Position numbers and translations under genes: made by a program. Below are positions 36,967 to 60,140 of a stretch of DNA of 64,000 nucleotides, piece by piece. The notes beneath the pieces were generated by a model. That model saw only the letters and a program-made list of their open reading frames with translations, was not told the origin of the DNA and ran no database searches. The number at the start of each line of letters is the position of its first letter. The first letter of the stretch is position 1. This DNA is from Vicinamibacteria bacterium (GTDB lineage: Bacteria; Acidobacteriota; Vicinamibacteria; Fen-336): assembly GCA_016934575.1 (NCBI GenBank), contig JAFGSN010000052.1:3868-67867 (forward strand), in the 5' to 3' direction.

Positions 36967-37045
36967 TGCGCGAATCACGCGCCGGATGGGCCGCGGGTCG
37001 GCTCTCGGCCCCCTGGATCCCCTGGAGAGGTCGAATCGATACGCC

Positions 37046-43228: not shown

Positions 43229-43372
43229 GCTTCCCGAGCCTCCTGGCGATGATGAGTTGTCGCCGCTCACGCCAAAACTTCAAAGAGACCACGAGTGCGG
43301 TACGATGGCGGAGTCCGCGGATCGGCCGACGCCGAAGCCGCTGCCGGCGCGGCGCGGAATGGGAGAGGTCGA

Positions 43373-45079
43373 GTGAGGTTCGGCATCAAGAGATCGACAG
43401 CGTACATTCTTGCGGCGGCGGCTGGCGCCGCCGGCTTGGCGTACCCTGGCCGCGTTCAGGAGGTTCGTTTTACCGACGTGACCGAATCGTCCGGCATCCG
43501 CTTCGAGCACATCAACGGAGCGTTCGGCAAAAGGCTCCTTCCCGAAACCATGGGTGCGGGCGTGGCGCTGTTGGATTACGATAACGACGGACGCCAGGAC
43601 ATCTTTTTCGTCAACTCCACGAGTTTCCATGGCCAGCCTGGGCCCATAGGCCTCCCCGCGCTCTACCATAACAACGGTGATGGAAGCTTCACGGACGTGA
43701 CCCGCGCCGCTGGACTGGCCGTCGCGGTCTACGGCATGGGCGTCACCGTCGCCGACTACGACAACGACGGCTGGGAGGACATATACGTCACGGCGGTCGG
43801 ACCGAACCGATTGTTCCGAAACCTGAACGGCCGGCGCTTCACGGACGCGACAGTTAAGGCGGATGTCGGAGATCCCGGATTCTCGGCAAGCGCGGCGTTC
43901 TTCGATTATGACAATGACGGCTGGCTGGACCTCTTCGTCACCAATTATGTCGAGTGGTCGCAGGCCAAGGACGTCTTCTGCACGCTGGACGGCAGTCGCA
44001 AGTCCTATTGCTCTCCCGAGTCTTATCGCGGCCAGAGTCCCCGTCTCTACCACAACCGGGGCGACGGCACATTCGAGGACGCCACCGCCCGGGCCGGCCT
44101 CCGCGATCCATCGAGCAAGGCCCTGGGCGTGGCGCTCCTGGACATCGATAGCGACGGCTGGCTCGACCTGTTTGTGGCCAACGACACCCAACCCAACAAA
44201 CTCTATCGCAACACCGGCAAGGGCACATTTGTCGACGTCGCGGTTCAGATGGGCGTGGCCTTCAGCGAGTACGGCATCGCCCGGGCCGGCATGGGTACGG
44301 ACGCCGCCGACTACGACGGATCCGGACGAGCCGGCCTGATCGTCGGCAACTTCTCCAATGAGATGATGGCGTTGTTTCATAACGACGGCGACGGGTTCTT
44401 CGTCGACGAAGCCGCGCTGACGACCGTGGGGCATGCGACGTACCTCAAGCTGACCTTCGGCTGCTTCTTCTTCGACTTCGACCTCGATGGGCGCCGCGAC
44501 ATCCTCGGCGCGAACGGCCACATCTGCGACGATATCGCCGCCGCTCACCCGCGGATCGGTTACGCCCAGACCGCTCACCTCTTGCGCAACCTCGGCGGGC
44601 GGCGCTTCGAGGACGTCTCCGGAACGGTCGGCCGCGGGCTGGCCGTTCCGTTCGTCGGCCGCGGGCTGGCGCATGGCGACCTCGACGGGGACGGCGACCT
44701 CGATGTCGTCCTGACCGTCAACCAGGGACGGGCGCGAATGTTCCGCAACGACGGCGGCAACCGCAACGGCTACGTGCGGCTTCGGCTCATCGGAACGCGC
44801 TCCAACCGCAGCGGCATCGGCGCTCGCGTCATCCTGACTCATGCCGGCGGCACACGGCAATGGGCCCTCGTGAAAACTGGATCGAGCTACTGCTCCCAGA
44901 GCGAGCTGCCAATCACTTTCGGCCTGGGCCCGAGGGACAGGCCTGCGCGCATCGAAGTGGCGTGGCCCAGCGGCCAGCGGGATCTCATTACACATCCATC
45001 GTCCAACCGTATGCTCACGATCGTGGAGCGGGAAGGGCTTGTCGCAAGCGGCGTCATCAAGACGGATCGGAAGCGGTAA
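43373..45079 (+). CDS. CRTAC1-family protein (FG-GAP/VCBS repeats + ASPIC/UnbV domain), secreted
   Basis: GTG start 43373 preceded by GGGAGAGG (5-nt spacing); signal peptide ILAAAAGAAGLA; repeated DYDNDGW.D FG-GAP motifs; C-terminal UnbV_ASPIC-like region. Confidence 0.7.
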   Translation: MRFGIKRSTAYILAAAAGAAGLAYPGRVQEVRFTDVTESSGIRFEHINGAFGKRLLPETMGAGVALLDYDNDGRQDIFFVNSTSFHGQPGPIGLPALYHNNGDGSFTDVTRAAGLAVAVYGMGVTVADYDNDGWEDIYVTAVGPNRLFRNLNGRRFTDATVKADVGDPGFSASAAFFDYDNDGWLDLFVTNYVEWSQAKDVFCTLDGSRKSYCSPESYRGQSPRLYHNRGDGTFEDATARAGLRDPSSKALGVALLDIDSDGWLDLFVANDTQPNKLYRNTGKGTFVDVAVQMGVAFSEYGIARAGMGTDAADYDGSGRAGLIVGNFSNEMMALFHNDGDGFFVDEAALTTVGHATYLKLTFGCFFFDFDLDGRRDILGANGHICDDIAAAHPRIGYAQTAHLLRNLGGRRFEDVSGTVGRGLAVPFVGRGLAHGDLDGDGDLDVVLTVNQGRARMFRNDGGNRNGYVRLRLIGTRSNRSGIGARVILTHAGGTRQWALVKTGSSYCSQSELPITFGLGPRDRPARIEVAWPSGQRDLITHPSSNRMLTIVEREGLVASGVIKTDRKR

Positions 45080-46451
45080 GCTTGTCGGCGTCGATGCCGT
45101 GCTTGCGCAGGTAGTAGCCAAGGTTCCGCTGATCGATACCGAGCAGTCGCGCGGCCTCTTTCCGCACACCACCTGAGCCGCCGAGAGCCGCCAGAACGAC
45201 CTCTTTTTCACGCTGTAGAAGCGCCTGCCGTAAATTCATCGGGCTATCCTCGGCGTTCTTGCCTCTGGCCGGCGCAACAGACCCCGGAGCCAGGTCGAGA
45301 GACTCGACGATGTCGCCAATGCTCATGATGATCGTACGCTCGATGGCATTGCCCAGTTCGCGGACGTTGCCGGGCCACGAGTAGGCCGTCATTTCTTCCA
45401 GGCACGACCGTGAGAATGCAGGGGTGGATCGGCCGAGACGAGCGGATACCTTTGCCGCGAAGTGAGCGGCCAGGAGCGGAATGTCGTCGATCCTCTCGCG
45501 CAGCGGAGGGACGACGATACGAATGACATTGAGGCGATAAAAAAGATCCTGCCGAAAACGGCCTTCGGCGACGTCTTTCTCCAGGTCGCTGTTGGTCGCG
45601 GCCATGAGCCGAACGTCGACGCTGGTCGCGCGTTCATCGCCAAGGCGATTGAACTCGCCGTCTTGCACGACACGGAGGATCTTGGCCTGGGCGATGAGCG
45701 GCATGGACCCGACCTCGTCCATGAAAAGAGTGCCTCGATGAGCCAGACGGAAATGTCCCTCCCGATCCGCCACGGCCCCCGTGAAGGCGCCCTTACGATG
45801 GCCGAAAAATTCGCTTTCCCACATCTCCACGGGCACGGCGGCGCAACTGACCCGAACATAGGGAGCCCTGGATCGAGCGCTCCACCGGTGGACGAGGCGG
45901 GCGAGAAGCTCCTTGCCCGTTCCCGATTCGCCGAGGATCAGAACCGTCGAGTCAGTGGGGGCCACGGATTGAATGGTCTTCAACACCTGCCGCCACGCGT
46001 CCGACCGCCCCACCGGGAACTCCGCTCCGTCCTCTCTGCCACGCAGATATTCAAGCTCACGGCGTATCGCTCGCGATTCCATGGCCCGGTCGAGAACGAG
46101 CTCCAAAGCCGAGGGAGCGGCGGGCTTGAGGACATAGTCGGATGCGCCGGCGTGCAGACACTCCACGGCCGAGGACACGGTGCCGAAACCGGTCAACACC
46201 ACGACGGGAACTTCCGGGTAAGATGCTCGCACGCGCCGCACCAGTTCAAGGCCTCCGCCTTCGGGCATCTTGAGATCGGTGAGAACCACGTCGAATGAGC
46301 GGCGCTCGCAGCGCCTCAAAGCCGACTCAACTCCGTCGGCCAGATCGACGTCGAATCCGCGAGACGCCAGCATCTCGCCCAGTGAATTACGGACATAGGT
46401 CTCGTCGTCCACGACAAGGACCTGGCCCCTCCGTGGTCGCCCGTCAGCCAC
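45057..46451 (-). CDS. Sigma-54-dependent two-component response regulator (NtrC family: receiver + AAA+ + Fis HTH)
   Basis: Receiver VLVVDDE...DLKMP; AAA+ GESGTGKE, GAFTGA sigma54-contact motif, ESELFGH-like, arginine finger region; C-terminal HTH; GTG start 46451 two nt after kinase stop. Confidence 0.85.
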   Translation of the reverse strand: MADGRPRRGQVLVVDDETYVRNSLGEMLASRGFDVDLADGVESALRRCERRSFDVVLTDLKMPEGGGLELVRRVRASYPEVPVVVLTGFGTVSSAVECLHAGASDYVLKPAAPSALELVLDRAMESRAIRRELEYLRGREDGAEFPVGRSDAWRQVLKTIQSVAPTDSTVLILGESGTGKELLARLVHRWSARSRAPYVRVSCAAVPVEMWESEFFGHRKGAFTGAVADREGHFRLAHRGTLFMDEVGSMPLIAQAKILRVVQDGEFNRLGDERATSVDVRLMAATNSDLEKDVAEGRFRQDLFYRLNVIRIVVPPLRERIDDIPLLAAHFAAKVSARLGRSTPAFSRSCLEEMTAYSWPGNVRELGNAIERTIIMSIGDIVESLDLAPGSVAPARGKNAEDSPMNLRQALLQREKEVVLAALGGSGGVRKEAARLLGIDQRNLGYYLRKHGIDADKLTASDPS

Positions 46452-48066
46452 CGGCCGCCTCCGTCCACTCGGGAAGAGTGATGCGGAACACGGCGCCGCC
46501 TCCGTCTCTGTTCGCCGCCTCCAGCTTGCCTCCATGCTGGGCGACGATGGAGTTGCATACGGAGAGTCCGAGGCCGGTGGAGCCCTTCGTCGAGAAAAAC
46601 GGCTCGAAAATCCGATTCAGGTCGGCCGGCGAGACGCCGGGGCCGCGATCGGCGACCTCGATGCGTATCTGTCCGTCGCTCCGATCGGCGGTCAGGCGCA
46701 CCTCGCCCCCCTGAGGCTGAGCCTCGCAGGCGTTGAGCACGAGGTTCATGAGCACTTGCCCGAGCATCACGCTGTTTCCCATGACCATCAGCGGCCCCTT
46801 GCGCAGATCGACATCGAACGTCGTTTCACGGAAAGCGCGCCGCGATTCCACGAAAGCCGTCGTCTGTCGTGACAAATCTCCAACGTCTACTGGGCTGGCG
46901 GGGGCGCTCGTGGGATCGACCTGGGTGAGAACCTGCCGGACAGTGCCCGCGACACGCTCCATCCCCTCCTGTACGCCTTCCAGGCGACGGCGGACCGAGG
47001 AAACATCGGCGCGATCGAGATCATCCTTTGCCAGGGTCAGGTAATTGAGCATGCCCTCGAGCGGATTGTTGATCTCGTGAGCGATGCCGGCCACAACTCG
47101 CCCGACAGTGGCGAGCCGTTCGGAGTGAAAGAGCTGTCGCTCTAGTTCCCGAACCCGAGTCTCCTCGCGAGCCTGGCTCTCGAGCCTCACCTGGCGCCGA
47201 AGCTGGAGCACGCTGTAAAGACCCAACAACAAGGTCAGCGCCATCACTCCCAGGTCGACGACCAAGGTGAGGCGATAGCGGCGGGAGAGCGGTTCGACAA
47301 GACCGAGGATCGCCGCTCGGCTCCCCACGCAAGTCAGCTTCCATGGAGACGGCGCGGCCCAGCCTCCGGCCCGTACCAGTGACTCGGCCGTGAGGCGTTC
47401 AACGACGGCTTCGCTCTCCGGAATGCCGCCCGCCAGGGGCCAATCGCTGGCGTCCGTGAGCAGGCATTGCGGGGAAGCTTCGGATCTCGCCGGCGCGATC
47501 AGGCTGGAAGCGTCCAGCTCGGCCACCACACGCTGAGCCCTGGTCGTCGCGGCGTGAGTTCCTAGGCCGAAAACGCCCCGAATATGCGGCCGTCGTCCCA
47601 AGGCCGGCGGCGGCTGAACCATAACCTGTCTGTCGGAAGCAGGACGCCATACCATAGGAACGCCGCCGCGCCAGCCGGCTTCGACGAGCACACGGTTCTT
47701 TCCCACAAGGACGGAGATCCGCAAGATCTGAGGGTGTCCGCGAAGGAAGATGAGGAGGGCCGCTCCCGCGCCCTGGCGGTCCCAGTCGTTCCCTCCCGCC
47801 CCGGACGGATGGGTCTCCTCTCCTAGTCGAGTGATGGCGCTCGAGCCCGCTAGAAAGACGAGATCCATGCGGCTCTGCGACACGATATCCTGAATGGCGC
47901 GGGCGCGATTCTCCGTTTCGAGACGAAAGAGGCGATTCGCCTCCTCATCGAGACCCCGGCGGGCCATCGTGATGTCCCACAAGCCCGCCCCGTTGACGGC
48001 AACGACTATGGACAGCAGGAGAATCGTAAGCCAGCCAAGGTGAGTGTTGCTGCGGCGTATCTGCAT
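46444..48066 (-). CDS. Sensor histidine kinase with N-terminal TM/periplasmic sensor domain
   Basis: H-box HEINNPLEGM, N/G boxes DRGPGVSPADLNRIFEPFFSTKGSTGLGLSV; TM helices flanking ~270-aa periplasmic region; start ATG 48066 or GTG 48120. Confidence 0.75.
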   Translation of the reverse strand: MQIRRSNTHLGWLTILLLSIVVAVNGAGLWDITMARRGLDEEANRLFRLETENRARAIQDIVSQSRMDLVFLAGSSAITRLGEETHPSGAGGNDWDRQGAGAALLIFLRGHPQILRISVLVGKNRVLVEAGWRGGVPMVWRPASDRQVMVQPPPALGRRPHIRGVFGLGTHAATTRAQRVVAELDASSLIAPARSEASPQCLLTDASDWPLAGGIPESEAVVERLTAESLVRAGGWAAPSPWKLTCVGSRAAILGLVEPLSRRYRLTLVVDLGVMALTLLLGLYSVLQLRRQVRLESQAREETRVRELERQLFHSERLATVGRVVAGIAHEINNPLEGMLNYLTLAKDDLDRADVSSVRRRLEGVQEGMERVAGTVRQVLTQVDPTSAPASPVDVGDLSRQTTAFVESRRAFRETTFDVDLRKGPLMVMGNSVMLGQVLMNLVLNACEAQPQGGEVRLTADRSDGQIRIEVADRGPGVSPADLNRIFEPFFSTKGSTGLGLSVCNSIVAQHGGKLEAANRDGGGAVFRITLPEWTEAAGG

Positions 48067-48207
48067 GCCATGAAGACCCGAGTCGCACGCTAGCGTAGCG
48101 TGGATTCGCGACGAACGCACCCCGCCTGTCGTGCTCGATGTGCGCGCCTAGGCCGGATCATAGAGGATATTCGACCCCCGGTTGGCTCGCCCATAGATCG
48201 TATGGAG

Positions 48208-48226
48208 GGCACGCATCACACGTGCC
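48208..48226 (+). promoter_or_regulatory. Candidate enhancer (UAS) inverted repeat for the sigma54 activator
   Basis: GGCACG-N7-CGTGCC perfect inverted repeat ~100-125 bp upstream of the -24/-12 element, in the HK/RidA divergent intergenic region. Confidence 0.35.
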
Positions 48227-48310
48227 GGCGCTTCTCCAACGCACCCTGGAAGTCCTTCTCCTGTATAGTGATTCGCGAATCGTGGCTTGTTTCAGAGACG
48301 CCGCCATTCT

Positions 48311-48326
48311 CGGCATGTGTATTGCT
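48311..48326 (+). promoter_or_regulatory. Sigma-54 (-24/-12) promoter candidate
   Basis: CGGCATG-TGTA-TTGCT matches TGGCACG-N4-TTGCW with exact GG/GC spacing (GG 48312-13, GC 48324-25); ~80 nt upstream of RidA-like ATG; adjacent to sigma54 activator gene; AT-rich spacer region. Confidence 0.5.
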
Positions 48327-48405
48327 AGATATTAATTCGGTTGAAATCAACAGACCGCCTAAGAATCATCAACTGATTGGCGCGAAACAAGAATGCGAGG
48401 AAGCG

Positions 48406-49017
48406 ATGTTCAAGGAGCAATTCATGCCGGACAAGCAACAACACAAGATCGACCTCGGCCATCTGACGTCTGGCGGACGCGAAGAACTGGCGAAACTCGG
48501 CCTGCTCGGTTCGAATGACGCCGTGCTCGATTGCCCCTACCGTAAAGACGCCTCTCGATCTTCATCGATCTCTAAGCACGCCATATCGGCGCCCCAAGTG
48601 CTGAACGAGGCGCGCTGCTACGGCTCGTCTTTTCCGCGAGGCCTGCGACTTGAGCTCGGCGGATTGTCGGTCCTGCTCATCTCGGGGACGGCATCGATCG
48701 ACGAAAACGGGAAAACCGTCCATGTCGGCGATTTCGGCGCGCAGTGTTGGCGAACCTATCGCAATATCACGACGCTTCTGGCCGCAGAAGGCGCCACATG
48801 GCACGACGTCATTCGCACGACTAACTACCTGAGGGACATCGAGCGCGATTATGAGCCATTCAACGGAATCCGAACGTCATTCTTCACCTGGCTGGGCCTG
48901 AATCCGCTCCCGGCCAGTGTTGGCGTGCAGGCGCGGCTGTGCCGCAGCGATCTCTTGGTCGAGATCGAGGCCGTGGCTCTCATCCCACGCGGCGAGAAGG
49001 CCGAGCAAACGCGATGA
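48406..49017 (+). CDS. RidA/YjgF/TdcF-family protein with ~70-aa N-terminal extension
   Basis: GAGGAAG RBS before ATG 48406; C-terminal 130 aa match RidA fold (ISGTASIDENGKTV...NYLRDIE...VEIEAVA); track ORF from 48100 is an extension. Confidence 0.7.
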   Translation: MFKEQFMPDKQQHKIDLGHLTSGGREELAKLGLLGSNDAVLDCPYRKDASRSSSISKHAISAPQVLNEARCYGSSFPRGLRLELGGLSVLLISGTASIDENGKTVHVGDFGAQCWRTYRNITTLLAAEGATWHDVIRTTNYLRDIERDYEPFNGIRTSFFTWLGLNPLPASVGVQARLCRSDLLVEIEAVALIPRGEKAEQTR

Positions 49018-49044
49018 TTGACAACATGGAGGATCGACGGGCGC

Positions 49045-49329
49045 ATGACGACCCAATTTGAGTCGTCGATCCTGGCATGCGTTGAATCAACGGATCATCT
49101 CGGCGCCGCGACGCGATATAATCGCGCCGCTGTCGCGTGGAAAAAGCATCTCCTTGACGATTCGATCTCGGCGGTGGATATATCCGAGAACACGCATGGC
49201 GCACGGTCAACGGAGCCGAACGAAATCGAGGACATTTTTCGGCTGGTGCGCCGCGCCTCCGAGTATTTCCCGCTGAAGACGATGATTCGGCGGCGGATAA
49301 GCCGGCTGGAGGTCATCAGGCAGCAATGA
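49045..49329 (+). CDS. Small hypothetical protein
   Basis: 94-aa ORF (ATG 49045) between RidA-like gene and PD40 gene; overlaps next start; no recognisable domain. Confidence 0.3.
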   Translation: MTTQFESSILACVESTDHLGAATRYNRAAVAWKKHLLDDSISAVDISENTHGARSTEPNEIEDIFRLVRRASEYFPLKTMIRRRISRLEVIRQQ

Positions 49330-51407
49330 ACGTCATTCATCGTGACGAACAACACGGCTTGCGACGCGAGGCCCCGAGACTGCGGATTCGTCTGCTCGCG
49401 CTGGCGGTCTTTGTTACGACCGGCGATCCCGGGATCGCCTTGAACCGGCAGAGCGCTCCTGGAATCGCTGCGGCATTGTCCGCGAAACGTACGCCCTCGA
49501 TGTGCTTCGTCGTCACGCAATTGCCCATCGGCACGGCGGCCGAGAAGCAGGGGCCTCTTTCGGGCGGCATGTCGCCCGCCGACTGGGGCGCCGGCGCGCG
49601 GCTCGTTCTCGTCGAAGCGGGCAAGGTCTTCAAGGTGCTGACGTCCGATTTCGCGAGCGCCGCCGATCCCGACGTGTCCTTCGACGCCAAATCAATCGTC
49701 TTCGCCGGCCAGAAGCAAGCGGACGACCGTTGGGCCATCTACGAGATGAACGCCGACGGGAGCGGAGTGCGACAGGTCACGAGCGCGATCGATGATCTTC
49801 GCCAGCCCGTCTACCTACCAACAGTCCACACCATCATCGCCGACCCGACCAAGGGCACGGAGCCTCGACCTCAGATCGGCTACGTGCGTCTCTTCGACGC
49901 GTCACTCAACGAGGCCGGCGCCGGCCGCGCGCGGGCGATCTACTCCGTTCGAATCGACGGAGCATCGCCACGACGCCTGTCCTACAACTTGTCGAGCGAC
50001 ATGAACCCGACCGTTCTGAACGACGGCCGCATCGTCTATGCGAGCTGGCGGCGCGCGACGTTTTCACGCGGGGTCTCGGGTCGAATCGTGCTGCTCGGCA
50101 TCAACCCGGACGGCACGGACCCGGCGATCTTCGCGGGCGACGAAGGGCTGCGTCTCAAGCTCATGCCATGCGTGACGCGCGATCGCCTGGTGGCCTTCGT
50201 CGAAGCCGAAAGCGTGGGCTGGGACGGCGCCGGAAGCCTGGGATGCGTCAGCCTGCGCCGAAACCTGCACTCGCGCCGCCGGATCACCTTTGAGGGCGAC
50301 GGTCTCTTCCTTTCTCCGTCGGCCTTGTCTGACGGGCAGATCGTGGCGGCGCGACGCCCGCCAAACGGATCCGGCGATCACGGCATCGTCCGCGTTCATC
50401 CCGTTTCCGGCAAGGTGACGTCGCTCTTCGATGACGCCGCCTTCCATGACATTCAGGCGCGTGCGATTGCGCCGCGCCCGGCGCCCGACGGTCGATCGAG
50501 CGGCCTCAAGGACCCCGATGAAGAGGCGCATGCCGCCGAGTCCGGCGACGCGTCCCGGAAGGTTGCCATCCCGGACGTGACAATGTACGGCCTGAACGTC
50601 TATCTGAACGACTTGGGGCACGACTTGGCCGAAGGCGTCATCCGCCGCCTGCGCATCATTGAAGGCATGCCGTTGACCTCGACAAGCGGACCGGCAGCCC
50701 ATGGTCCCGAGCCGCTCGCTCCCCGAAGGCTCCTCGGCGAGGCGCCGATCGAGCCGGACGGCTCCTTCTACATCCAGATTCCGGCCGAGACGCCAGTGCA
50801 ATTCCAGATCCTCGATCAGGACGGCCTCGCGCTTCGCACGTCGGGTTGGATCTGGGGGCATTACAACGGCCGTCAGGGCTGCGTGGGCTGCCACGAAGAC
50901 CCGGAGCGAACGCCTCCAAGCCGCTTTGCCGACGCGCTCCGCAAGCCGGGCGTCAGGCTGATTCTTCCTCCCGAGCGCAGGCGTGCGGTGGATTACCGCC
51001 ACGACATCGCTCCCATCGTCAAGGCCCGCTGCGCCGGTTGCCACGGCGAGGACAAGATGGTGCGCCTGGACGGCGGCCTTTCCACAACAGGCGCGAGCGG
51101 CCGTTTCTCACGAGCATACGAGTCGCTGCTCGCCGAACTTGACCGTGCGCCCGGCGAGGTGGTCGGCCGGTACGTGCATCCCCATCAGGCGCGTACCAGC
51201 CCTTTGATCTGGCATATCCTGGGTCGTAACACCGCTCGGCCGTGGGATGGATCGGCCACGCGTGCGAAAGCCAAGCCGATGCCGATGAGCGCGGGCGCCG
51301 CCTTGAGCGAGGACGAACGCGGACTGTTCATCGAATGGATCGACATGGGAGCGCTATGGGACGCGTCGGCAGGGTCCACGTCCATGACGATCGGAGGAGC
51401 GCGATGA
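49326..51407 (+). CDS. Secreted PD40/TolB-like beta-propeller protein with C-terminal Planctomycete-type cytochrome c (PSCyt1-like) CxxCH domains
   Basis: Signal peptide region RLLALAVFVTTG; PD40-like repeats (DPDVSFDAKSIVFAG...IYEMNADGSGVRQVT); C-terminal CVGCHED and IAPIVKARCAGCHGEDKMVRLDGG matching PSCyt1 pattern. Confidence 0.65.
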   Translation: MNVIHRDEQHGLRREAPRLRIRLLALAVFVTTGDPGIALNRQSAPGIAAALSAKRTPSMCFVVTQLPIGTAAEKQGPLSGGMSPADWGAGARLVLVEAGKVFKVLTSDFASAADPDVSFDAKSIVFAGQKQADDRWAIYEMNADGSGVRQVTSAIDDLRQPVYLPTVHTIIADPTKGTEPRPQIGYVRLFDASLNEAGAGRARAIYSVRIDGASPRRLSYNLSSDMNPTVLNDGRIVYASWRRATFSRGVSGRIVLLGINPDGTDPAIFAGDEGLRLKLMPCVTRDRLVAFVEAESVGWDGAGSLGCVSLRRNLHSRRRITFEGDGLFLSPSALSDGQIVAARRPPNGSGDHGIVRVHPVSGKVTSLFDDAAFHDIQARAIAPRPAPDGRSSGLKDPDEEAHAAESGDASRKVAIPDVTMYGLNVYLNDLGHDLAEGVIRRLRIIEGMPLTSTSGPAAHGPEPLAPRRLLGEAPIEPDGSFYIQIPAETPVQFQILDQDGLALRTSGWIWGHYNGRQGCVGCHEDPERTPPSRFADALRKPGVRLILPPERRRAVDYRHDIAPIVKARCAGCHGEDKMVRLDGGLSTTGASGRFSRAYESLLAELDRAPGEVVGRYVHPHQARTSPLIWHILGRNTARPWDGSATRAKAKPMPMSAGAALSEDERGLFIEWIDMGALWDASAGSTSMTIGGAR

Positions 51408-53047: not shown

Positions 53048-53069
53048 AAACGAAAGGCCTCCGCGCGCG

Positions 53070-55973
53070 ATGCGTTACAAGAGAGCTCTCGCGTTGCTGC
53101 TCGTGCCGCTCGCATGGGTCTTCGTCCATGCGCCGGGGCGTCCGTCCGTTCGCGCCGCCGGCAAGGATCCGATCTATGTCGGATCCCACGCCTGTGCGAA
53201 GTGCCACGACGGCGCGGGCATGGGCCACCAGTATAGCAAATGGCTTCTCGGCCGACACGCACGCGCGTACGCCTCGCTGAGCCTTCCGGAGTCGCGCCAG
53301 ATCTCGGATCTTTCCGGAATTCCAGGCGATCCGCACGACTCCCCGATGTGCCTCGGCTGCCATGCCACCGGCTCGGATGCGGAGCCGTGGCAACGCGACG
53401 CCGCGTTTCATACGGCGGACGGCGTCCAGTGCGAGAAGTGCCACGGTCCCGGCAGCGAGTATATGGACATGGAGGTCATGCAAAACCGCGAGGCAGCCAT
53501 GATGGCCGGCCTCATGATGCCCGCCAAGAAGGACTGCATGCTCTGCCACTACGTCAAGGGGTCGCACGCGGCCGTGCACAAGCGGCCGCTGATCGACGTC
53601 GAGAAGGCATGGATGAAGATCGCGCATCCCACGCCCAAGAGCGCATCGCCGGGCGGCCCCGCCGGCGTGGGCAAGACGGTTTCCCTGAAAGGTCCCAAGT
53701 ACGCGGGCGTCGATGCCTGCGGCGCCTGCCACAACACAGCCATGATGAACCGCCAAGCCAATCGCTGGAAAATGACGGCGCATTCCCGGGCCTGGGCCGT
53801 GCTGGCGACGCCGAAGGCCTTCGAGATTGCGAAAGACAAGGGCCTGACCGGAGCGCCCCAGCAGACGGCGCAGTGTCTCAAGTGCCACGCGACCGGCCAT
53901 GGGCAAGACCCCGGCCGTTTCCTGGCGAGCGCACGAATCACCGAAGGCGTGACTTGCGAGGCGTGTCACGGACCCGGCAGCGAGTACATGCCCGAGGCCG
54001 TCATGCGCGACCGACTAGCCGCCAGGAAAGCCGGTTTGGTCGAACCGACGGCCGAGAGCTGCATGGGCTGCCACCAAAACGCCCACGGCAAGACGTTCGA
54101 CGCGGTGATGGCGATGAAAAAAATCGCCCATCCCATGAAGCCTCCCATGGCGACCATGGCAAAGACGGCCGAGTTCTCGATCCCGCCGAGCCGGAGCGGC
54201 TACAAGACGCCGCGCCACCTCGCCGTCCGTCCCGACGGCGCCGAAGTCTGGATCGCCTGCGAAGCCAGCGACAGCCTGATCATCGTCGACGTGAAGAAAC
54301 GGCTGAAGACGGCGGAAATCAAGGTCGGCGGGCAGCCTCACGACGTGGCGTTCGAGCCTGACGGGAAGCGCGCCTTCGTCTCCAATCGTCTCGATGACAG
54401 CGTCTCGGCCATAGACGTCGCGTGCCGCAAGGTTACGGCGACCATTGCGGTCGGCGACGAGCCACACGGGTTGGTCGTCAACAAGTCCGGCGCACTGCTC
54501 TTCGTGCTCAACTCCGCCAGTGAAGACATCTCGGTGATCGACCTTGAGGAGCTGCGCGAGCTACGCCGGCTCAAGGCCAGCCGTTTCCCATGGTCGCTCG
54601 CGCTCTCTCCCGACGGCCGGCGCATCGTGGCCACGAACACGCTCTCCAAGCTCGTGCCCTTCCGGCAACCGTCGGTTTCCGAGCTGACCGTGATCGACGC
54701 CGAGAAAGGCCGTATCGCGGACCGGCTGGAGGCGCCTGGCGCGAACTTGCTTCAGGGTGTGGACTGGCACCCTTCGGGCCGCTTCGCCCTCTTCACGCTG
54801 AACCGCACCAAGAACCTTGTTCCCATGACGCGCATCCACCAGGGTTGGACGATCACGAACGGTTTAGGCGTCGCCTGGGCTGACGGGCGCGTCGATCAGG
54901 TCCTGCTGGACGAGCCCAACTGGTACTTCGCCGACGCCTCCGACGTGGCCATCACGCCCGACGGCCGCCTAGCTTTCGCCACCAGCCAGGGCACGAATCG
55001 CGTCGCTGTTGTCGACGTCGAGCGACTCATCGATCTGTTGCAGAAAGCGTCGCTACGCGATCGCGCCGAGGTGATCCCGAACCACCTCGGCAAATCGGCC
55101 GAGTTCATCGTGAACTACGTGGAGACGCCGGATGCTCCGCGCGGCGTGGCCGTGACGCCGGATGGCACGACGGCGTTCGTGGCCAATCAGCTCGACGACT
55201 CGCTCACCGTGATCGACGTGGGAAGCAGGGCGTCCGTGGCGCGCATCGACCTGGGCGGGCCCAGGGAGGTCACGCACACGCGCTGGGGCGAGAAACTCTT
55301 CCACAGCGCCAACATCACTTTCCAGCGGCAGTTCGCTTGCGCCTCCTGCCACCCGGACGGCCACGTGGACGGTCTGACTTATGACATCGAGGCCGACGGC
55401 ATCGGCATCAATCCCGTGGACAATCGCACGCTGCGCGGGATCTACGACACCGATCCCTTCAAATGGGAAGGAACGAATCCATCGTTGGCGCGGCAATGCG
55501 GCGCGCGCTTGGCGGCGTACTTTACGCGCATTCAGCCGTTCACTCCCGAGGAGCTTTCGGCCGTGAACGACTACACGGTGACGATCCCTCGTCCTCCCAA
55601 CCGATACCGCGCCGCCGGCGCCGAGCTCACCGCGGCGCAAGCTCGGGGCAAGTTGGTGTTCGAGCGCACGCACGGCGCGGATGGCAAGGAGATCCCCGTT
55701 GACAATCGCTGCATCACCTGTCACTTCCCGCCCTACTATACGGATCGCAGCAAGCGGGACGTCGGCTCCAAGCACTGGCTGGACAAGCAGGGCATCTTCG
55801 ACGTGCCGCACCTCAACAACATCTACGACTCGGCGCCGTACTTGCACAACGGCATCGCCGACACGCTCGAGGAAATCTGGACGCGCTTCAATCCATACGA
55901 CACGCACGGCGTGACGAACGACATGACCAAGGACCAGTTGAACGACCTGATCGAATACCTGAAAACACTGTAG
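53070..55973 (+). CDS. Multidomain c-type cytochrome: 8 CxxCH (2x tetraheme c554-like) + YVTN beta-propeller + C-terminal di-heme cytochrome c peroxidase/MauG-like domain
   Basis: Signal peptide MRYKRALALLLVPLAWVFVHA; CxxCH motifs CAKCH, CLGCH, CEKCHGPGSEYM, CMLCH, CGACH, CLKCH, CEACHGPGSEYM, CMGCH, then CASCH and CITCH in CCP-like C-terminus (DVPHLNNIYDSAPYLHNG, LIEYLKTL); YVTN-like repeats between. Confidence 0.8.
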   Translation: MRYKRALALLLVPLAWVFVHAPGRPSVRAAGKDPIYVGSHACAKCHDGAGMGHQYSKWLLGRHARAYASLSLPESRQISDLSGIPGDPHDSPMCLGCHATGSDAEPWQRDAAFHTADGVQCEKCHGPGSEYMDMEVMQNREAAMMAGLMMPAKKDCMLCHYVKGSHAAVHKRPLIDVEKAWMKIAHPTPKSASPGGPAGVGKTVSLKGPKYAGVDACGACHNTAMMNRQANRWKMTAHSRAWAVLATPKAFEIAKDKGLTGAPQQTAQCLKCHATGHGQDPGRFLASARITEGVTCEACHGPGSEYMPEAVMRDRLAARKAGLVEPTAESCMGCHQNAHGKTFDAVMAMKKIAHPMKPPMATMAKTAEFSIPPSRSGYKTPRHLAVRPDGAEVWIACEASDSLIIVDVKKRLKTAEIKVGGQPHDVAFEPDGKRAFVSNRLDDSVSAIDVACRKVTATIAVGDEPHGLVVNKSGALLFVLNSASEDISVIDLEELRELRRLKASRFPWSLALSPDGRRIVATNTLSKLVPFRQPSVSELTVIDAEKGRIADRLEAPGANLLQGVDWHPSGRFALFTLNRTKNLVPMTRIHQGWTITNGLGVAWADGRVDQVLLDEPNWYFADASDVAITPDGRLAFATSQGTNRVAVVDVERLIDLLQKASLRDRAEVIPNHLGKSAEFIVNYVETPDAPRGVAVTPDGTTAFVANQLDDSLTVIDVGSRASVARIDLGGPREVTHTRWGEKLFHSANITFQRQFACASCHPDGHVDGLTYDIEADGIGINPVDNRTLRGIYDTDPFKWEGTNPSLARQCGARLAAYFTRIQPFTPEELSAVNDYTVTIPRPPNRYRAAGAELTAAQARGKLVFERTHGADGKEIPVDNRCITCHFPPYYTDRSKRDVGSKHWLDKQGIFDVPHLNNIYDSAPYLHNGIADTLEEIWTRFNPYDTHGVTNDMTKDQLNDLIEYLKTL

Positions 55974-56013
55974 GAGCGAAAGGCCGTTCGCCCCTACGAT
56001 TCGGGAGACACCG

Positions 56014-57219
56014 ATGATGCGCGTAATCATTAAAGTCTCGGCCGCGGTTCTGGCCGTCTTGACGCCGGTGGCCGCCTTCGCCGAGGCGACGCATGCGTCG
56101 CCTCGAGGATTGCCTTATGTCTATACAAAATGGAAGCATTTCACGATCGAGAACGGCTTGCCGAACAATCACGTCTTCGCCGTGCGCTCCAACGGGAACG
56201 ATCTTTGGGTCGGCACTGAAAACGGGCTGGCGCTGATCGACAAGCGCCAGAGCAAGGTCGTCAAGGTCTGGCAGGAAAAGGACGGCCTCCCCTTCCGATC
56301 GATCGCCGGCATCGATGTCGACAAAAACACCGGCGACGTCTGGCTCGGCCTTTTCGGCGGCGGATTGGCGCGCCTTTCGGGCGACCGTTTCGATCACTGG
56401 CACCAGTTGAACAGCGGTCTCGTCAACGACGTCGTCTACGACGTGGTCATGGAGCACGAGAACGTCTGGTGCGCCACGACCGCCGGGGCCTCGCGCTTCA
56501 ACCCAAAAACCGGCGAGTGGGCGATCTTCACTGAAAAAAACGCCCCCATGGAGGAAATCTGGAACTACGCCGTCGATTACGACCCGCAAGCGAACAAGGT
56601 CTTCCTGGCGATCTGGGGCTCGGGCGTGCTCGAATACGACGTGGCGACGGACCGCTGGCAGGAATACGTCGACCCGGACGGAGAAATGGAAATCGACCTT
56701 TACCGCGACGACGGCGTCAACCACGTCATTGTCACCGGCGTAACCAGCATCGACGGCGCCATGTGGGTTTCCTCCTACTTCGGCGGCACGCGCTATGACG
56801 GCCGGAGCTGGCTCGGACTGCCGGACATCGAAGGCGGACTGCCGAGCCTGTTCAACAATAACGTCAAGGGCCGGAGCGCTCACGAGGCCTGGTTTTGCTC
56901 GGACAAGGGCGCGGGCGCGATCGTGGATCTCGATCCCGAAACCTGGGTCCAGTACGTGCGCGACGGCCGCGGCGGACGCGCGATCGTGAAGCAACGCCTG
57001 AAGCCGGAGGACAAGACCCTGACGACGGTCGAGGTAGTCGAAACGGGCGTCAACGCACCCCACTCCTTCATCGTCAACGCCGACGTCGAGGGCAACGACG
57101 TCTTCCTGGGAACGTCGCACGGACTGGGCTGGGGCGTCGGCGAGGGCTATTATCCGCGCCTCAAGGAACGACCGCTCATCGGGGCTGCGCCCAAGGCGGA
57201 TGTCGCCACACAAAGGTAG
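56014..57219 (+). CDS. Secreted beta-propeller protein with two-component-regulator-propeller (Reg_prop)-like repeats
   Basis: Signal peptide MMRVIIKVSAAVLAVLTPVAAFA; repeats NGLPNNHVFAVRSNGNDLWVGTENGLALID typical Reg_prop. Confidence 0.6.
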   Translation: MMRVIIKVSAAVLAVLTPVAAFAEATHASPRGLPYVYTKWKHFTIENGLPNNHVFAVRSNGNDLWVGTENGLALIDKRQSKVVKVWQEKDGLPFRSIAGIDVDKNTGDVWLGLFGGGLARLSGDRFDHWHQLNSGLVNDVVYDVVMEHENVWCATTAGASRFNPKTGEWAIFTEKNAPMEEIWNYAVDYDPQANKVFLAIWGSGVLEYDVATDRWQEYVDPDGEMEIDLYRDDGVNHVIVTGVTSIDGAMWVSSYFGGTRYDGRSWLGLPDIEGGLPSLFNNNVKGRSAHEAWFCSDKGAGAIVDLDPETWVQYVRDGRGGRAIVKQRLKPEDKTLTTVEVVETGVNAPHSFIVNADVEGNDVFLGTSHGLGWGVGEGYYPRLKERPLIGAAPKADVATQR

Positions 57220-57272
57220 AGGGAAGGCATATGCCTCACCCGCGGAACCGTCAAATGGTTAGGAGAAACGTC

Positions 57273-58748
57273 ATGAAACGCCAATCGGTCATTGTAATCA
57301 TGCTGCTTTTCGCCGCCGGATTCGCTTTTCCCGGCGACGGACGGAAGGCAACGCCGCTCAAGGAGTGGATCGAATTCGATCATCCCAAGATTCTCGCGTT
57401 GCTCAATCACATCAACGGCTTGGACGCGTACACGGTTCCTCCGCTCGAGGTTCGCAAGGACGAAAACTACGCCGGCACGGCCGTTGACGTCGAGCCCTTC
57501 GGAGGCGTGCGACCCTACAACGAGTTCTTCCTCCAGCAGATGGAGTACACAGGGCCTGGACGAGCCGAACCCGAACCCGAACACCTCGACACGGTGAAGA
57601 TCGGTTTCATCGGTCCCATCATGTCCACGGTCTCGGTCGCCACCGGCGGCAAGAGCCACGAGGAGACGCTTGGCATTCCAATGCTGCAGGGCGCGCGTCT
57701 CGCTCTCGAACAGTGGAACGAGCGCGGCGGCTATCTCAAGCGCAAGATTCCCTTTGAGCTAGTCGTTAGCAACGACAACGGACTGTGGGGCGCATCCGGC
57801 AACGAGATCATCAAGCAGAACTACAAGGACAAGGTGTGGGCGATCCTCGGGACGATCGACGGCGCCAACAGCCACATCGCCATCCGCGTGGCGCTCAAGT
57901 GCGAGGTCGTGATGATGAACACCGGCGACACGGATCCGACCTTCATCGAAACCAACATCCCCTGGGTTTTTCGTAACATCGGCGATGACCGGCAGCAGAG
58001 CTATCTCCTGATCGACTACGCATACCGCAAGATGGGTTACAAAATGCTCGGCATCATCCGCGCCAGCAACCGCTATGGCCGTTTCGGCGTGCGCGAGGTC
58101 CGCGACAGCGCGCGACGGTTGGGCAAGCCCGTGCCGCTGGAGATGGCCTACCAGGTGGGTCAGGAGGACTTCGCGCTCGAGATCGAGCGTTTGCGGAAGT
58201 CCGGCGTCGACGCCATCGTGCACTGGGGCGACGCGGTCGAGGGCGCCAAGATCCTCAACCAGATGCGCGCCATGGGCATGAAGCATCCCTACCTGGCCTG
58301 CGATCGCTGCGTTCAGGCTGATTTTGCGAAGATCGCCGGCGCCAACGCCGAGGGCGTCGTCTGTGCTTACCCCTGGAATCCCGAGAGCCAGACGAAGTTG
58401 TTCGTGAAGTTCCGCGACGCCTACCGCGCCCGTTTCGGCCAGGAACCCGAGACCTACGCCGCCCACGCTTACGACGGCATGAACATGATCATTTGGTCGA
58501 TCCAGGCGGCAGGCCTCAATCGCGCCAAGATGCGTGACGTGCTGGCCTACATGCCCGAGCCCTGGCCGGGAGTTACCGGCGATATTCAGCTCTCGGCCTG
58601 TCTTGACGACGTGGGCGACGTCTTCCTGGCGAAATACGAGAACGGCGACTGGAACTACTATTCGCGCACGGATCTCGACATTCCCAAGGGTTACATCCCG
58701 CCTCGCGATCGCGTGAGTCGTCCGGACATCGAGATCGCGCGGAAGTAA
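57273..58748 (+). CDS. Periplasmic binding protein type I (LivK/Peripla_BP_6-like), orphan
   Basis: AGGAG RBS then ATG 57273; signal peptide MKRQSVIVIMLLFAAGFAFPG; PBP-I fold features; no ABC permease/ATPase genes nearby; track ORF from 56895 is an extension. Confidence 0.7.
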   Translation: MKRQSVIVIMLLFAAGFAFPGDGRKATPLKEWIEFDHPKILALLNHINGLDAYTVPPLEVRKDENYAGTAVDVEPFGGVRPYNEFFLQQMEYTGPGRAEPEPEHLDTVKIGFIGPIMSTVSVATGGKSHEETLGIPMLQGARLALEQWNERGGYLKRKIPFELVVSNDNGLWGASGNEIIKQNYKDKVWAILGTIDGANSHIAIRVALKCEVVMMNTGDTDPTFIETNIPWVFRNIGDDRQQSYLLIDYAYRKMGYKMLGIIRASNRYGRFGVREVRDSARRLGKPVPLEMAYQVGQEDFALEIERLRKSGVDAIVHWGDAVEGAKILNQMRAMGMKHPYLACDRCVQADFAKIAGANAEGVVCAYPWNPESQTKLFVKFRDAYRARFGQEPETYAAHAYDGMNMIIWSIQAAGLNRAKMRDVLAYMPEPWPGVTGDIQLSACLDDVGDVFLAKYENGDWNYYSRTDLDIPKGYIPPRDRVSRPDIEIARK

Positions 58749-58756
58749 GGGGCGGC

Positions 58757-59986
58757 GTGTCTGCCCCCGCGCCGGCTCCAGGGCCGCGTGGCCGCCTTCT
58801 GGTTGCTCCGTCCACGCCGGGCCTGCTGCTTCTCCTGGCGACAGCGACCATGGCCGTCGCGCAGGAAAGCCGCCCCGCGCCGTTCTTCGATGCGCGTACA
58901 TATCAGACGGAATACGTAGGGCCCGGACGGGACGCGCCCCAACCGACGGACCTGAACGAAGTGCGGATCGCTTACTTCGGACCCGCCGATGAGGGCCATC
59001 CCGACTGGGGCGAGGCATGGCGCGGCGCGAGTCTCGCGATAGAGAAGGCCAACGCCAACGGCGGCCATCAGGGCAAACCGTTCCGTCTGCTCTCGGCTTG
59101 GTCGGACAATCCTTGGGGTTCAGGTGTCGCCGACCTCGCCAGGCTGGCGTTCAAGGAAGGCGTCTGGGCGATCGTGGGCGGCGTTGACGGCGCCACGACG
59201 CACCTCGCCGAGCAGATCGCCGTCAAGGCCAGGCTACCGCTCGTGAGCCCGGGATGCACGGACCCGAGCGTCAACTTCACCAACGTGGCATGGATGTTCA
59301 CTCTTCTTCCCACTGACGACCGGATCGCGCCCTTGCTCGCGAAATCCATCGTCGAGAGAAACGCGGATAAGTCGTGGGCCGTCGTCACAACGAACAACCG
59401 CGACGTTCGCGCGGCATGGAGCGCTCTCCGCCTCGGGCTTGCGGCGCGTCGCGCGCGGTCGCCGTCGCTCCACTTGACGTTGACGACTTCGACGCCAGAG
59501 TGCGCACGCGCCGCCCGCGAAGTCGCGCGACACAAACCGCGCCTCGTGCTGGTTCTCGCGACCGCCCGCGACGGCGCTCGCATCATCAAAGCGCTTCGAT
59601 CTGCGGGTTGCGACGGAAACGTCATGGGCGGCGCATCGTTCGGACATCGGCCGTTCTCGCTAGAAGCAGGCCCGACGGCCGATGGAGTCGCTTTCCCCTT
59701 GCTCTTCGACCCGGAAAACCCGGATGCGGACGCCTTCATTCGAGCCTACAAGGCCCGTTGGGGCTCGCCGCCGGACTTTCTGGCGGCCAACGCATACGAC
59801 GCGACGGATCTGATCGTTGGCGCCGTGGACCGGGCCGGCCTGAATCGCGTCCTGATACGCGACGCTCTCGCAACGCTCGCGCCCTGGGACGGAGTCGCGG
59901 GCCGAATCGCCTGGGATTCCACCGGACGGAACATGCGTCCAGTCACGATGGGCGTCTGGCATGACGGCCATGTACGCCGGCGATAG
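58757..59986 (+). CDS. Second periplasmic binding protein type I (LivK-like), orphan paralog
   Basis: GTG start 58757; hydrophobic signal region LLLLLATATMAVAQES; IAYFGP, GVWAIVGGVDG PBP-I-like motifs. Confidence 0.6.
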   Translation: MSAPAPAPGPRGRLLVAPSTPGLLLLLATATMAVAQESRPAPFFDARTYQTEYVGPGRDAPQPTDLNEVRIAYFGPADEGHPDWGEAWRGASLAIEKANANGGHQGKPFRLLSAWSDNPWGSGVADLARLAFKEGVWAIVGGVDGATTHLAEQIAVKARLPLVSPGCTDPSVNFTNVAWMFTLLPTDDRIAPLLAKSIVERNADKSWAVVTTNNRDVRAAWSALRLGLAARRARSPSLHLTLTTSTPECARAAREVARHKPRLVLVLATARDGARIIKALRSAGCDGNVMGGASFGHRPFSLEAGPTADGVAFPLLFDPENPDADAFIRAYKARWGSPPDFLAANAYDATDLIVGAVDRAGLNRVLIRDALATLAPWDGVAGRIAWDSTGRNMRPVTMGVWHDGHVRRR

Positions 59987-60111: not shown

Positions 60112-60140
60112 TTGACAATTAAGAGCATATGCTCATAATA
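60112..60140 (+). promoter_or_regulatory. Sigma-70 promoter TTGACA-N17-CATAAT with embedded 12-bp perfect palindrome operator
   Basis: TTGACA 60112-60117, CATAAT 60135-60140, spacer contains GAGCATATGCTC (60123-60134); in AT-rich stretch directly upstream of DUF134 gene (RBS GAGGTG, ATG 60155). Confidence 0.5.

Follow-up and report, generated by a model that had tools for sequence, protein, structure and literature searches.

The stretch of DNA analysed here, a 64,000-nt window from a metagenome-assembled genome of the Vicinamibacteria (Acidobacteriota) within which all coordinates are given, carries at positions 48406-59986 an 11.6 kb run of eight co-directional genes on the + strand, opposite a minus-strand gene pair for a sensor histidine kinase (HK) and an NtrC-type activator. 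Our analysis gives good support to the assignment of this run as one operon that encodes a secreted, 12-heme homolog of the hydrazine synthase (HZS) complex of anammox bacteria. It also supports, on architecture and residue pattern, the placing of the operon in clade I of the HZS homolog clusters described by Hagglund et al. (Genome Biol Evol 2025, PMC12758564). The core system is therefore already known, having been published as an uncharacterised HZS homolog cluster; what is new here is the Vicinamibacteria member, the extent and strictness of a conserved six-gene core that includes a Reg_prop propeller, an association with Rid-like and DAHP synthase genes, and putative control by sigma54 and a two-component system (TCS) through a conserved promoter. 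Taken as a whole, i.e. with identity, sigma54 regulation and chemistry combined, we regard this as the best explanation of the locus and put its probability at roughly 0.6. The eight genes of the operon are as follows.

48406-49017, + strand: cytoplasmic protein of the Rid/YjgF fold (Pfam Ribonuc_L-PSP, 1.8e-15; alternative start at 48424)
49045-49329, + strand: orphan open reading frame (ORF) of 94 codons, with coding-like GC content at third codon positions and a stop that overlaps the start of the alpha gene (ATGA)
49326-51407, + strand: HZS-alpha homolog, with an N-terminal beta-propeller, an HZS_alpha middle domain and two c-type hemes
51404-53047, + strand: FG-GAP/ASPIC propeller of the CRTAC1 family, with a signal peptide (Pfam FG-GAP_3, 1.1e-49; UnbV_ASPIC, 7.5e-23)
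53037-55973, + strand: decaheme homolog of fused HZS beta and gamma subunits, with a c554 octaheme region, a seven-bladed YVTN propeller and a diheme, CCP/MauG-like gamma domain
56014-57219, + strand: secreted beta-propeller of the Reg_prop type (phmmer match to PDB 4a2l, 1.8e-23)
57255-58748, + strand: first LivK-type (Peripla_BP_6) binding protein (PDB 4mlc, 8.1e-21; NCBIfam LivJ-like, 1.1e-20)
58757-59986, + strand: second LivK-type binding protein, the last gene (Pfam Peripla_BP_6, 9.9e-38, together with PDB matches)

The gaps between successive genes are 27, -4, -4, -11, 40, 35 and 8 nt, and no strong internal sigma70-like site was found inside the run, from which we conclude that it forms a single operon; a strong sigma70-like sequence, TTGACA-16-CATAAT at 60112-60139, lies directly past the last gene and marks the next unit. 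A preliminary description of this DNA, made from the sequence alone, had counted nine co-directional genes with tiny or overlapping gaps. It listed eight, and eight are present, but the gaps, at -11 to 40 nt, are as it stated. Its further statement that all the structural proteins have signal peptides is too strong, as the Rid-like protein and the small ORF show, on inspection, no N-terminus resembling a signal peptide; secretion signals were likewise recognised by inspection.

The identity of the complex is carried by the two heme proteins. The 693-aa product of the third gene matches Pfam HZS_alpha (PF18582, 1.2e-19) and the NCBIfam model hydrazine_alpha (NF052339, 1.6e-61), and aligns at 24% identity with PDB chain 5c2v_A (phmmer, 5.3e-46), its two CXXCH motifs (CVGCH at residue 519 and CAGCH at residue 569) falling upon the two motifs of the Kuenenia protein. 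When an AlphaFold2 model of this protein was compared with the PDB using Foldseek, 5c2v_A was the only full-length match (E 4.9e-35, TMq 0.70), the runner-up, TolB propellers, reaching TMq 0.31 over the N-terminal propeller only. It had been described at first as a PD40 propeller with PSCyt-type cytochrome domains; no PSCyt family was returned for it at E<=0.01, and HZS_alpha was found instead.

The 978-aa product of the fifth gene contains ten CXXCH motifs, eight of them at residues 53-342 and the others at 768 and 892, and matches Pfam Cytochrome_C554 in two stretches (7.5e-34). Its propeller matches 5c2v_B (8.8e-38) and its diheme domain 5c2v_C (6.6e-17), with NCBIfam E-values of 2.4e-62 for hydrazine_BC, 8.8e-47 for hydrazine_beta and 5.1e-22 for hydrazine_gamma. 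All of the NCBIfam HZS equivalog thresholds are, however, missed by the window proteins (208 bits against a cut-off of 800 for hydrazine_alpha, 211 against 1250 for hydrazine_BC, 160 against 560 for hydrazine_beta and 78 against 625 for hydrazine_gamma). Whilst the ten hemes and YVTN propeller noted previously for this fusion stand, the peroxidase assigned to its C-terminus does not, the whole being a homolog of HZS beta-gamma. Within the gamma domain, the equivalent of gammaCys165 is kept ('SLDRVCGR' aligns with 'SLARQCGAR').

Comparison with the anammox enzyme itself (Kuenenia stuttgartiensis HZS, PDB 5C2V, Dietl et al. 2015) shows the same subunit folds and domain order, a gamma-I CxSCH motif accompanied by the third Cys (the covalent bond itself being predicted), a gamma-II 'Y-x-H-[DN]-G' sequence compatible with bis-His ligation, the loop inserted in the beta-propeller, and the heme of the alpha middle domain. 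In contrast, gene order in the window is reversed, beta and gamma are fused, eight extra hemes are present, anammox partner genes are lacking, and the carriers belong to heterotroph lineages outside the Brocadiia; the residues that differ are considered below.

Hagglund et al. distinguish four clades of co-localised alpha and beta-gamma HZS homologs, and describe clade I (PMC12758564) as having alpha upstream, an FG-GAP/CRTAC1 gene between, and a fused beta-gamma gene bearing eight extra N-terminal hemes (two c554 domains), with two ABC substrate-binding genes downstream and both alpha heme motifs kept. Clade I proteins have Cys at gammaCys165 and Trp at gammaHis144 and have lost alphaTyr591/Ser590 and alphaHis772; a two-residue gap in the alpha-I region is reported for clades I-III, and the beta-loop Glu is stated not to be conserved. 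The window matches clade I, as so described, in gene order, in the extra hemes of beta-gamma, in the alpha motifs, in the two binding-protein genes and in the residue pattern; on this architecture and residue pattern it fits clade I, and the initial view that the locus matches no described system must be given up. Named carriers of clade I are Syntrophobacter fumaroxidans, Paludibaculum fermentans, Aquisphaera giovannonii, Thermogutta terrifontis and Novipirellula artificiosorum. The window member differs in coming from the Vicinamibacteria and in being flanked by a sigma54 TCS with a conserved -24/-12 promoter: the text of the clade I paper makes no mention of sigma54, two-component regulators or RidA, and the portions of it covered here do not discuss the Reg_prop propeller or DAHP synthase. 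An earlier proposal had regarded hzs-like genes as a broader enzyme family with other substrates (PMC10732223).

The gene set extends far beyond this genome. A scan of one genome per GTDB species yielded at least 590 relatives of alpha, from which 80 loci were analysed; gene presence was counted on a tblastn map restricted to loci with enough flank. The order alpha, FG-GAP/CRTAC1, beta-gamma, Reg_prop and two LivK-like genes was held nearly everywhere it was visible, with the following counts.

FG-GAP gene directly after alpha: 66/66 loci
beta-gamma gene: 60/61 loci
Reg_prop gene: 52/54 loci
at least one binding-protein gene: 49/51 loci
two binding-protein genes: 45/49 loci
Rid-like gene directly upstream of alpha: 31/66 loci

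The neighbourhood comparison that the preliminary description had proposed as a check thus finds the set conserved around homologs. The loci belong to Planctomycetota, Acidobacteriota, Verrucomicrobiota, Omnitrophota, Anaerolineales, Deferribacteres and Gemmatimonadota, the last having only part of the gene set. Clustering of the ORFs in these loci gave no further family common to more than nine of them, and specifically no transporter, nitrite reductase, HAO or cytochrome partner above that number. Ten CXXCH motifs occur in 53 of 54 full-length beta-gamma proteins, and invariant throughout the 54 are the gamma-I CxxCH, the Cys equivalent to gammaCys165, the inter-heme Trp, the His of 'PYLHNG' and the propeller-loop residues P-M-T..G-W..N. 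On these alignments the invariance marks an enzyme under selection and not a set of decaying paralogs, and, since the gamma-heme and tunnel-loop residues are invariant, the module very probably encodes an active enzyme, carried by phyla that abound in soil and sediment.

The elements from which we propose that the operon is controlled lie immediately upstream of it, together with a paralog of one of its genes.

43295-45079, + strand: second FG-GAP/ASPIC (CRTAC1-like) paralog, convergent with the activator gene (FG-GAP_3, 1.2e-48; UnbV_ASPIC, 1.8e-16)
45057-46535, - strand: NtrC-type response regulator, a sigma54 enhancer-binding protein (EBP; Response_reg, Sigma54_activat 6.5e-66, AAA_lid_14, HTH_8)
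46444-48066, - strand: sensor HK (Pfam HisKA and HATPase_c)
48159-48171 and 48192-48204, no strand assigned: pair of CATAG-N3-CTATG-like sequences 33 bp apart, candidate activator-binding sites chosen post hoc
48208-48226, no strand assigned: inverted repeat GGCACG-N7-CGTGCC (GGCACG-CATCACA-CGTGCC), read directly
48311-48326, + strand: sigma54-type -24/-12 element CGGCATG-TGTA-TTGCT, read directly, matching 6/8 plus the GG and GC dinucleotides

The activator and kinase on the minus strand, and the CRTAC1 paralog beyond them, are as the preliminary description gave them: the Pfam domains are those expected and the EBP translation contains GAFTGA. The true start of the EBP is probably a GTG near 46451, overlapping the HK stop as it does in the closest relative (locus L085), where the EBP ortholog has 463 aa and overlaps the HK gene by 8 nt. 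The HK has two predicted transmembrane segments with a periplasmic domain of ~235 aa between them that has no Pfam match, and its family numbers 2965 homologs at E<=1e-20, the majority being full-length. With the NtrB/NtrC, AtoS/AtoC and ZraS/ZraR systems the pair shares its REC, AAA+ (GAFTGA) and HTH_8 domains, an adjacent kinase and a divergent -24/-12 promoter; unlike them it falls below the NCBIfam equivalog cut-offs (best AtoC, 427 against 714) and its sensor domain is of no known family.

The -24/-12 element, CGGCATG-N4-TTGCT with canonical spacing, is present as previously noted, pointing at the operon, with its GG at 48312-13 and GC at 48324-25, in a divergent intergenic region of 285-340 bp; we infer from it a transcript start near 48337. 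A scan of the window with the sigma54 consensus, allowing at most one mismatch, returned one match where 0.69 were expected, and related DNA contains ~0.037 sites of at least 6/8 per kb, such that the element gains weight only from its position and from its conservation across species. In the alignment of the window with L085 the sequence GGCATGT[G/A]TATTGCTA is kept inside diverged flanks; two further loci, L086 and L088, have a perfect TGGCACG-CGGG-TTGCT (8/8) in the same place, also pointing at the operon; and L066, where an EBP gene lies immediately upstream, has TGGCACGTTGCCTGCA. The element is absent from L081 and L083, close relatives that lack the TCS. The layout of L085, whose kinase is 85% identical, matches that of the window, and in L086 and L088 (62%) the TCS is divergent from an operon with a long Rid-like gene, DAHP synthase, alpha and FG-GAP. 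The promoter thus co-varies with the adjacent activator, which is the main argument for its function, and it is this cross-species conservation that upholds the regulatory layout, i.e. an adjacent EBP/HK pair and a -24/-12 promoter, first suggested from the window. As a general property of the module, sigma54 control was rejected: sites of at least 6/8 occur in only 7/72 loci, against ~1.5 expected, and EBP genes in a handful.

The GGCACG inverted repeat upstream had been read as the enhancer. It is present, but that role is not upheld: L085 does not share the repeat, and its occurrence does not exceed chance. By arithmetic, one 6-bp inverted repeat with free spacer is expected about every 285 bp, and the four intergenic regions compared have 2-6 inverted repeats of 6-7 bp each. 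CATAG-like sites number 11 in the window against 7 expected, two of them within the 285-bp intergenic region. These two lie in blocks conserved in L085, and a similar sequence, CATAGGCCGTATG, precedes the promoter of L089; judged by sequence conservation the pair is possibly a better candidate for the activator sites than the repeat. Two observations made alongside may be recorded here. The long leader between the sigma54 promoter of L086 and the first gene of that operon contains a perfect 11-bp inverted repeat, GCACGGCGCGT-N11-ACGCGCCGTGC (~7600-7568, minus strand). The best match to the sigma54 consensus anywhere in the window is 6110-6125 on the + strand (TGGCACGCTACTCGCT, 7/8), which, coinciding as it does with the beginning of an FGGY sugar-kinase ORF (6109-7797), is probably a chance match.

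Several of our results weigh against the combined interpretation. At heme alpha-I, Kuenenia CSGCHYG aligns with CVGCHED, and the ...PERT that follows has no Tyr; the Tyr591 ligation of this heme, with His587 turned to a Zn site, has no counterpart in the window alpha, where alpha-I has a canonical CXXCH-His context. The distal ligand of alpha-II is also lost, alphaHis772 (chain His745) aligning with Ala656. In the gamma domain, gammaHis144 is replaced by Trp, as in CCP/MauG ('PPFRHEG' against 'DPFKWEG'), and gammaAsp168 is not conserved; in the beta loop, Kuenenia 'CEAEN' aligns with 'TRIHQ', the Glu positions becoming Arg and His, one of which we take, on our own numbering, to be that of the published Glu that binds Mg in the tunnel between the sites. 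The alpha model is of medium quality (pLDDT 69, pTM 0.70), and ORF clustering of the 80 loci showed neither nitrite reductase nor HAO/HDH conserved nearby. On the regulatory side, the -24/-12 match alone is not statistically rare, the TCS is found in 1/37 fully flanked HZS-like loci, its orthologs at ~50% identity (L087, L089 and L090) have no HZS-like genes beside them, c554/TPR and/or FG-GAP/ASPIC genes following instead, and rpoN was not seen among the annotated ORFs of the window.

A rival reading gives the TCS a different partner: the HK/NtrC pair might primarily regulate the CRTAC1-like paralog (elsewhere the c554/TPR gene), its adjacency to the operon being a lineage-specific juxtaposition and the operon's -24/-12 element either served by another activator or non-functional. 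The paralog at 43295-45079 is 61-84% identical to the TCS-adjacent FG-GAP proteins of L085, L086, L087, L089 and L090, which form an orthogroup of their own, and only ~35% identical to the FG-GAP proteins of the operons. In L087, L089 and L090 the TCS lies in units with a c554-like multiheme/TPR protein of ~949 aa and a CRTAC1-like protein (L087 11036-15570; L089 11246-15858; L090 11005-16058), L089 having a 7/8 sigma54 site before the c554/TPR gene. The TCS is also missing from L081 and L083, which are the closest relatives in alpha. Since orthologs of the paralog sit by the TCS where HZS-like genes are lacking, the paralog is the constant partner, which suggests a separate conserved unit of TCS, multiheme/TPR and CRTAC1-like genes in Acidobacteria, and the HZS-like operon seems to have joined the TCS regulon, or merely its neighbourhood, at a later time, in one Vicinamibacteria sublineage. 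In the window, L085 and L086, however, the paralog and the EBP gene converge, with no -24/-12 match ahead of the paralog, whilst the divergent intergenic region has a single good sigma54 site, which faces the HZS-like operon, and the operon's site co-occurs with the TCS across loci; paralog and operon could, moreover, share one regulon. We accordingly consider simple juxtaposition unlikely. Control of the operon by sigma54 and the window pair has moderate support for this sublineage, and we think it fairly probable, on these comparisons of sequence, that the adjacent TCS would drive the HZS-like operon.

Of the companion genes, the operon's FG-GAP gene is a CRTAC1-family member as initially described (Pfam FG-GAP_3 and UnbV_ASPIC), and 4a2l, the match of the Reg_prop propeller, is the periplasmic sensor of a Bacteroides hybrid two-component system. 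The two LivK-like binding proteins, the first with an N-terminal extension of ~110 aa, are both confirmed as orphans, i.e. transporter genes are not alongside. The first gene product, previously called RidA-like, does have the Rid/YjgF fold but is not a canonical RidA (TIGR00004, 45 against a cut-off of 106). Arg105 of RidA is essential; in the 'PAR' motif to which it belongs the window protein has Ser in its place ('lPASvgVQ', compared with 'fPARscVE' in YjgF (1qu9) and 'kPARvaVE' in PH0854 (2dyy)), so that a canonical imine deaminase is not expected. A weak match to the C-terminus of FkbO/Hyg5 chorismatases was found (TIGR04444, 1.6e-9). Many relatives have a ~390-aa form in which the Rid domain is C-terminal (L081 8817-10004; L083 8814-10004; L086 4873-6036) and which weakly resembles FkbO/Hyg5 chorismatases over ~200 residues; the window and L085 have only the short form of ~200 aa.

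At least 12 loci, distributed over Acidobacteriota, Planctomycetota, Gemmatimonadota and Deferribacteres, have a type I-beta DAHP synthase gene (NF006421, 366 bits, the cut-off being 335) next to the HZS-like module. Some of these loci have it between the Rid-like gene and alpha, and in L086 and L088 it lies inside the operon; the window's own operon has no such gene beside it. The positions are as follows.

L086 and L088, 3597-4631: DAHP synthase gene
L057, 3690-4400: DAHP synthase gene
L070, 8761-9474: DAHP synthase gene
L054, 9051-9725: DAHP synthase gene
L027, 8890-9573: DAHP synthase gene
L030, 20450-21124: DAHP synthase gene
L081, L083, L024, L031, L063 and L013, ~7.6-8.5 kb: DAHP synthase genes

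The Rid-like gene and alpha are separated by 308 bp, which the 94-codon ORF fills, starting in frame shortly past the TGA of the Rid-like gene. This ORF had no homolog in the 80 loci and found only itself among 1.84 billion representative proteins, which rules it out as a conserved gene; in L085 the gap between the Rid-like gene and alpha is 52 bp and has no equivalent ORF. We also rejected the idea that the TGA at 49015-49017 is a recoded codon within, or an interruption of, a long Rid-like gene, as the long form of the relatives extends N-terminally and not C-terminally. The 384-aa first gene of L086 and a 389-aa neighbour in L083 are unrelated (a Cys-rich repeat protein and a TPR protein, respectively) and do not constitute a shared accessory. 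Rfam searches at gathering threshold found no riboswitch or other known RNA in the 5' untranslated region or in the 308-bp interval, and our literature searches yielded nothing useful on what bacterial CRTAC1/ASPIC proteins do or on whether cultured carriers express their HZS-like genes.

The surroundings of the operon are ordinary housekeeping genes and its GC content is uniform with that of the flanks, ruling out a horizontally acquired island. Elsewhere in the window a single 2080-aa ORF (36986-43228, + strand) comprises DUF748/YhdP/TamB domains, POTRA repeats and an Omp85 barrel, so joining an inner-membrane-anchored TamB-like protein and a TamA/BamA-like outer-membrane protein in one polypeptide, and this fusion is kept in L085 (15344-21496). 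A 946-aa ORF at 9833-12673 (+ strand) combines UvrD-type helicase motifs with ankyrin repeats.

As regards function, the idea of an inducible periplasmic redox module put forward in the preliminary description appears reasonable, although its peroxidase and PSCyt labels were not borne out. In the mechanism that we propose for the HZS-like operon, the HK/NtrC pair would activate transcription through 48311-48326 in response to a periplasmic signal, binding upstream at sites other than the GGCACG repeat. The resulting complex would comprise an alpha-like subunit with 2 hemes and a beta-gamma-like subunit with 2 hemes and 8 c554-type hemes, and would keep the two-active-site design of HZS, the sites being linked via the beta-propeller loop and tunnel. 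In HZS the beta loop gates the tunnel between the sites. The gamma-type heme with its third Cys link would catalyse multi-electron conversion of a small N-O species, e.g. NO or hydroxylamine, the octaheme c554 region serving as a built-in electron wire that would supply or remove electrons; the product would then pass to the His-ligated alpha heme for a second step other than hydrazine formation, and the role of the binding proteins may be to bring in, or to capture, a co-substrate or product. In HZS the gamma-type heme binds NO (PMC12607021); an assignment to N-oxide or hydroxylamine chemistry specifically we hold only tentatively and regard as doubtful.

The gamma domain may be read differently, as a CCP/MauG-type enzyme that is peroxide-driven or performs long-range oxidation, the system then serving peroxide detoxification or the oxidation of organic molecules or proteins, possibly of an aromatic compound or an amine that the LivK-type proteins would bind and to which the recurrent Rid/FkbO-like and DAHP synthase genes would be related. 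Like the bacterial diheme enzymes it is a C-terminal domain of ~230 aa with two CXXCH motifs and an inter-heme Trp, the last invariant in 54/54 beta-gamma proteins, and it gives weak matches to the CCP_MauG, MbnH and MauG families. The presence of a bona fide DAHP synthase beside the module in several phyla, and within two operons, and the weak resemblance of the long Rid-like form to FkbO/Hyg5 chorismatases point in the same direction, as does the binding of aromatic acids by some PDB relatives of the binding proteins. However, the CCP_MauG score (19.3 bits) lies below the Pfam gathering threshold of 25.6, the domain is fused to a propeller and an octaheme region, and the position of the Met ligand of bacterial CCPs is occupied by Leu in 'APYLHNG', a sequence of which the 'PYLHNG' resembles HZS gamma. 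The extra Cys-heme link is likewise a feature of HZS and not of CCP, and the heme proteins are secreted, unlike the Rid-like protein and DAHP synthase, which are cytoplasmic. On balance we judge a CCP/MauG-type function improbable.

An electron conduit that reduces or oxidises metals in the periplasm or outside the cell, with the propellers as scaffolds, was the metal-linked option of the preliminary description. The system does carry twelve hemes, and the octaheme region has weak matches to MtrC/MtrF, decaheme DmsE and GSU2203; but it is HZS subunits that match most strongly and over the greatest length, ORF clustering showed no outer-membrane porin or MtrB-like partner conserved in the module, and residue invariance is concentrated at the catalytic gamma-I heme and in the beta loop, not at the wire hemes only, which together make a conduit very unlikely. 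A true hydrazine synthase, i.e. cryptic anammox-type N-N bond formation outside the Brocadiia, is scarcely credible in spite of the homology of the subunits, the retained design of the whole complex and the conserved gammaCys165 equivalent, given that the alphaTyr591/Ser590 region, alphaHis772 and gammaHis144 are not conserved, that NCBIfam scores are far below equivalog level (208 against 800, 211 against 1250), that no hydrazine dehydrogenase or HAO gene is conserved nearby in the loci compared, that carriers include ordinary heterotroph lineages, and that Hagglund et al. (PMC12758564) also judge clade I not to be hydrazine synthases.

Returning to the HZS-like enzyme complex as the preferred reading, its wider place may be sketched. 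Hydrazine synthase was long regarded as being without relatives, and its distant homologs are the only handle on the origin of anammox chemistry. The homolog described here is no oddity confined to a few genomes, belonging as it does to a tightly conserved module of 6-7 genes with at least 590 relatives among GTDB species genomes. That the seven-gene module represents a widespread non-anammox periplasmic system for an undescribed nitrogen-cycle reaction ancestral to HZS chemistry, at work in Acidobacteriota, Planctomycetota and Verrucomicrobiota of soils and sediments, is a speculation to which we attach little probability; under it the reaction may be, for example, reduction of NO or hydroxylamine to ammonium, or N-N or N-C coupling of hydroxylamine with an amine from the binding proteins. 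The labels 'PD40/cytochrome', 'CCP-like' and 'CRTAC1', under which the genes would ordinarily be annotated, hide a single system. The associations with Reg_prop, Rid/FkbO-like and DAHP synthase genes are further clues beyond those portions of the published description covered here, and the link to sigma54 and a TCS offers a way in for experiments, since the promoter would be inducible and the signal perceived by the sensor could point to the substrate.

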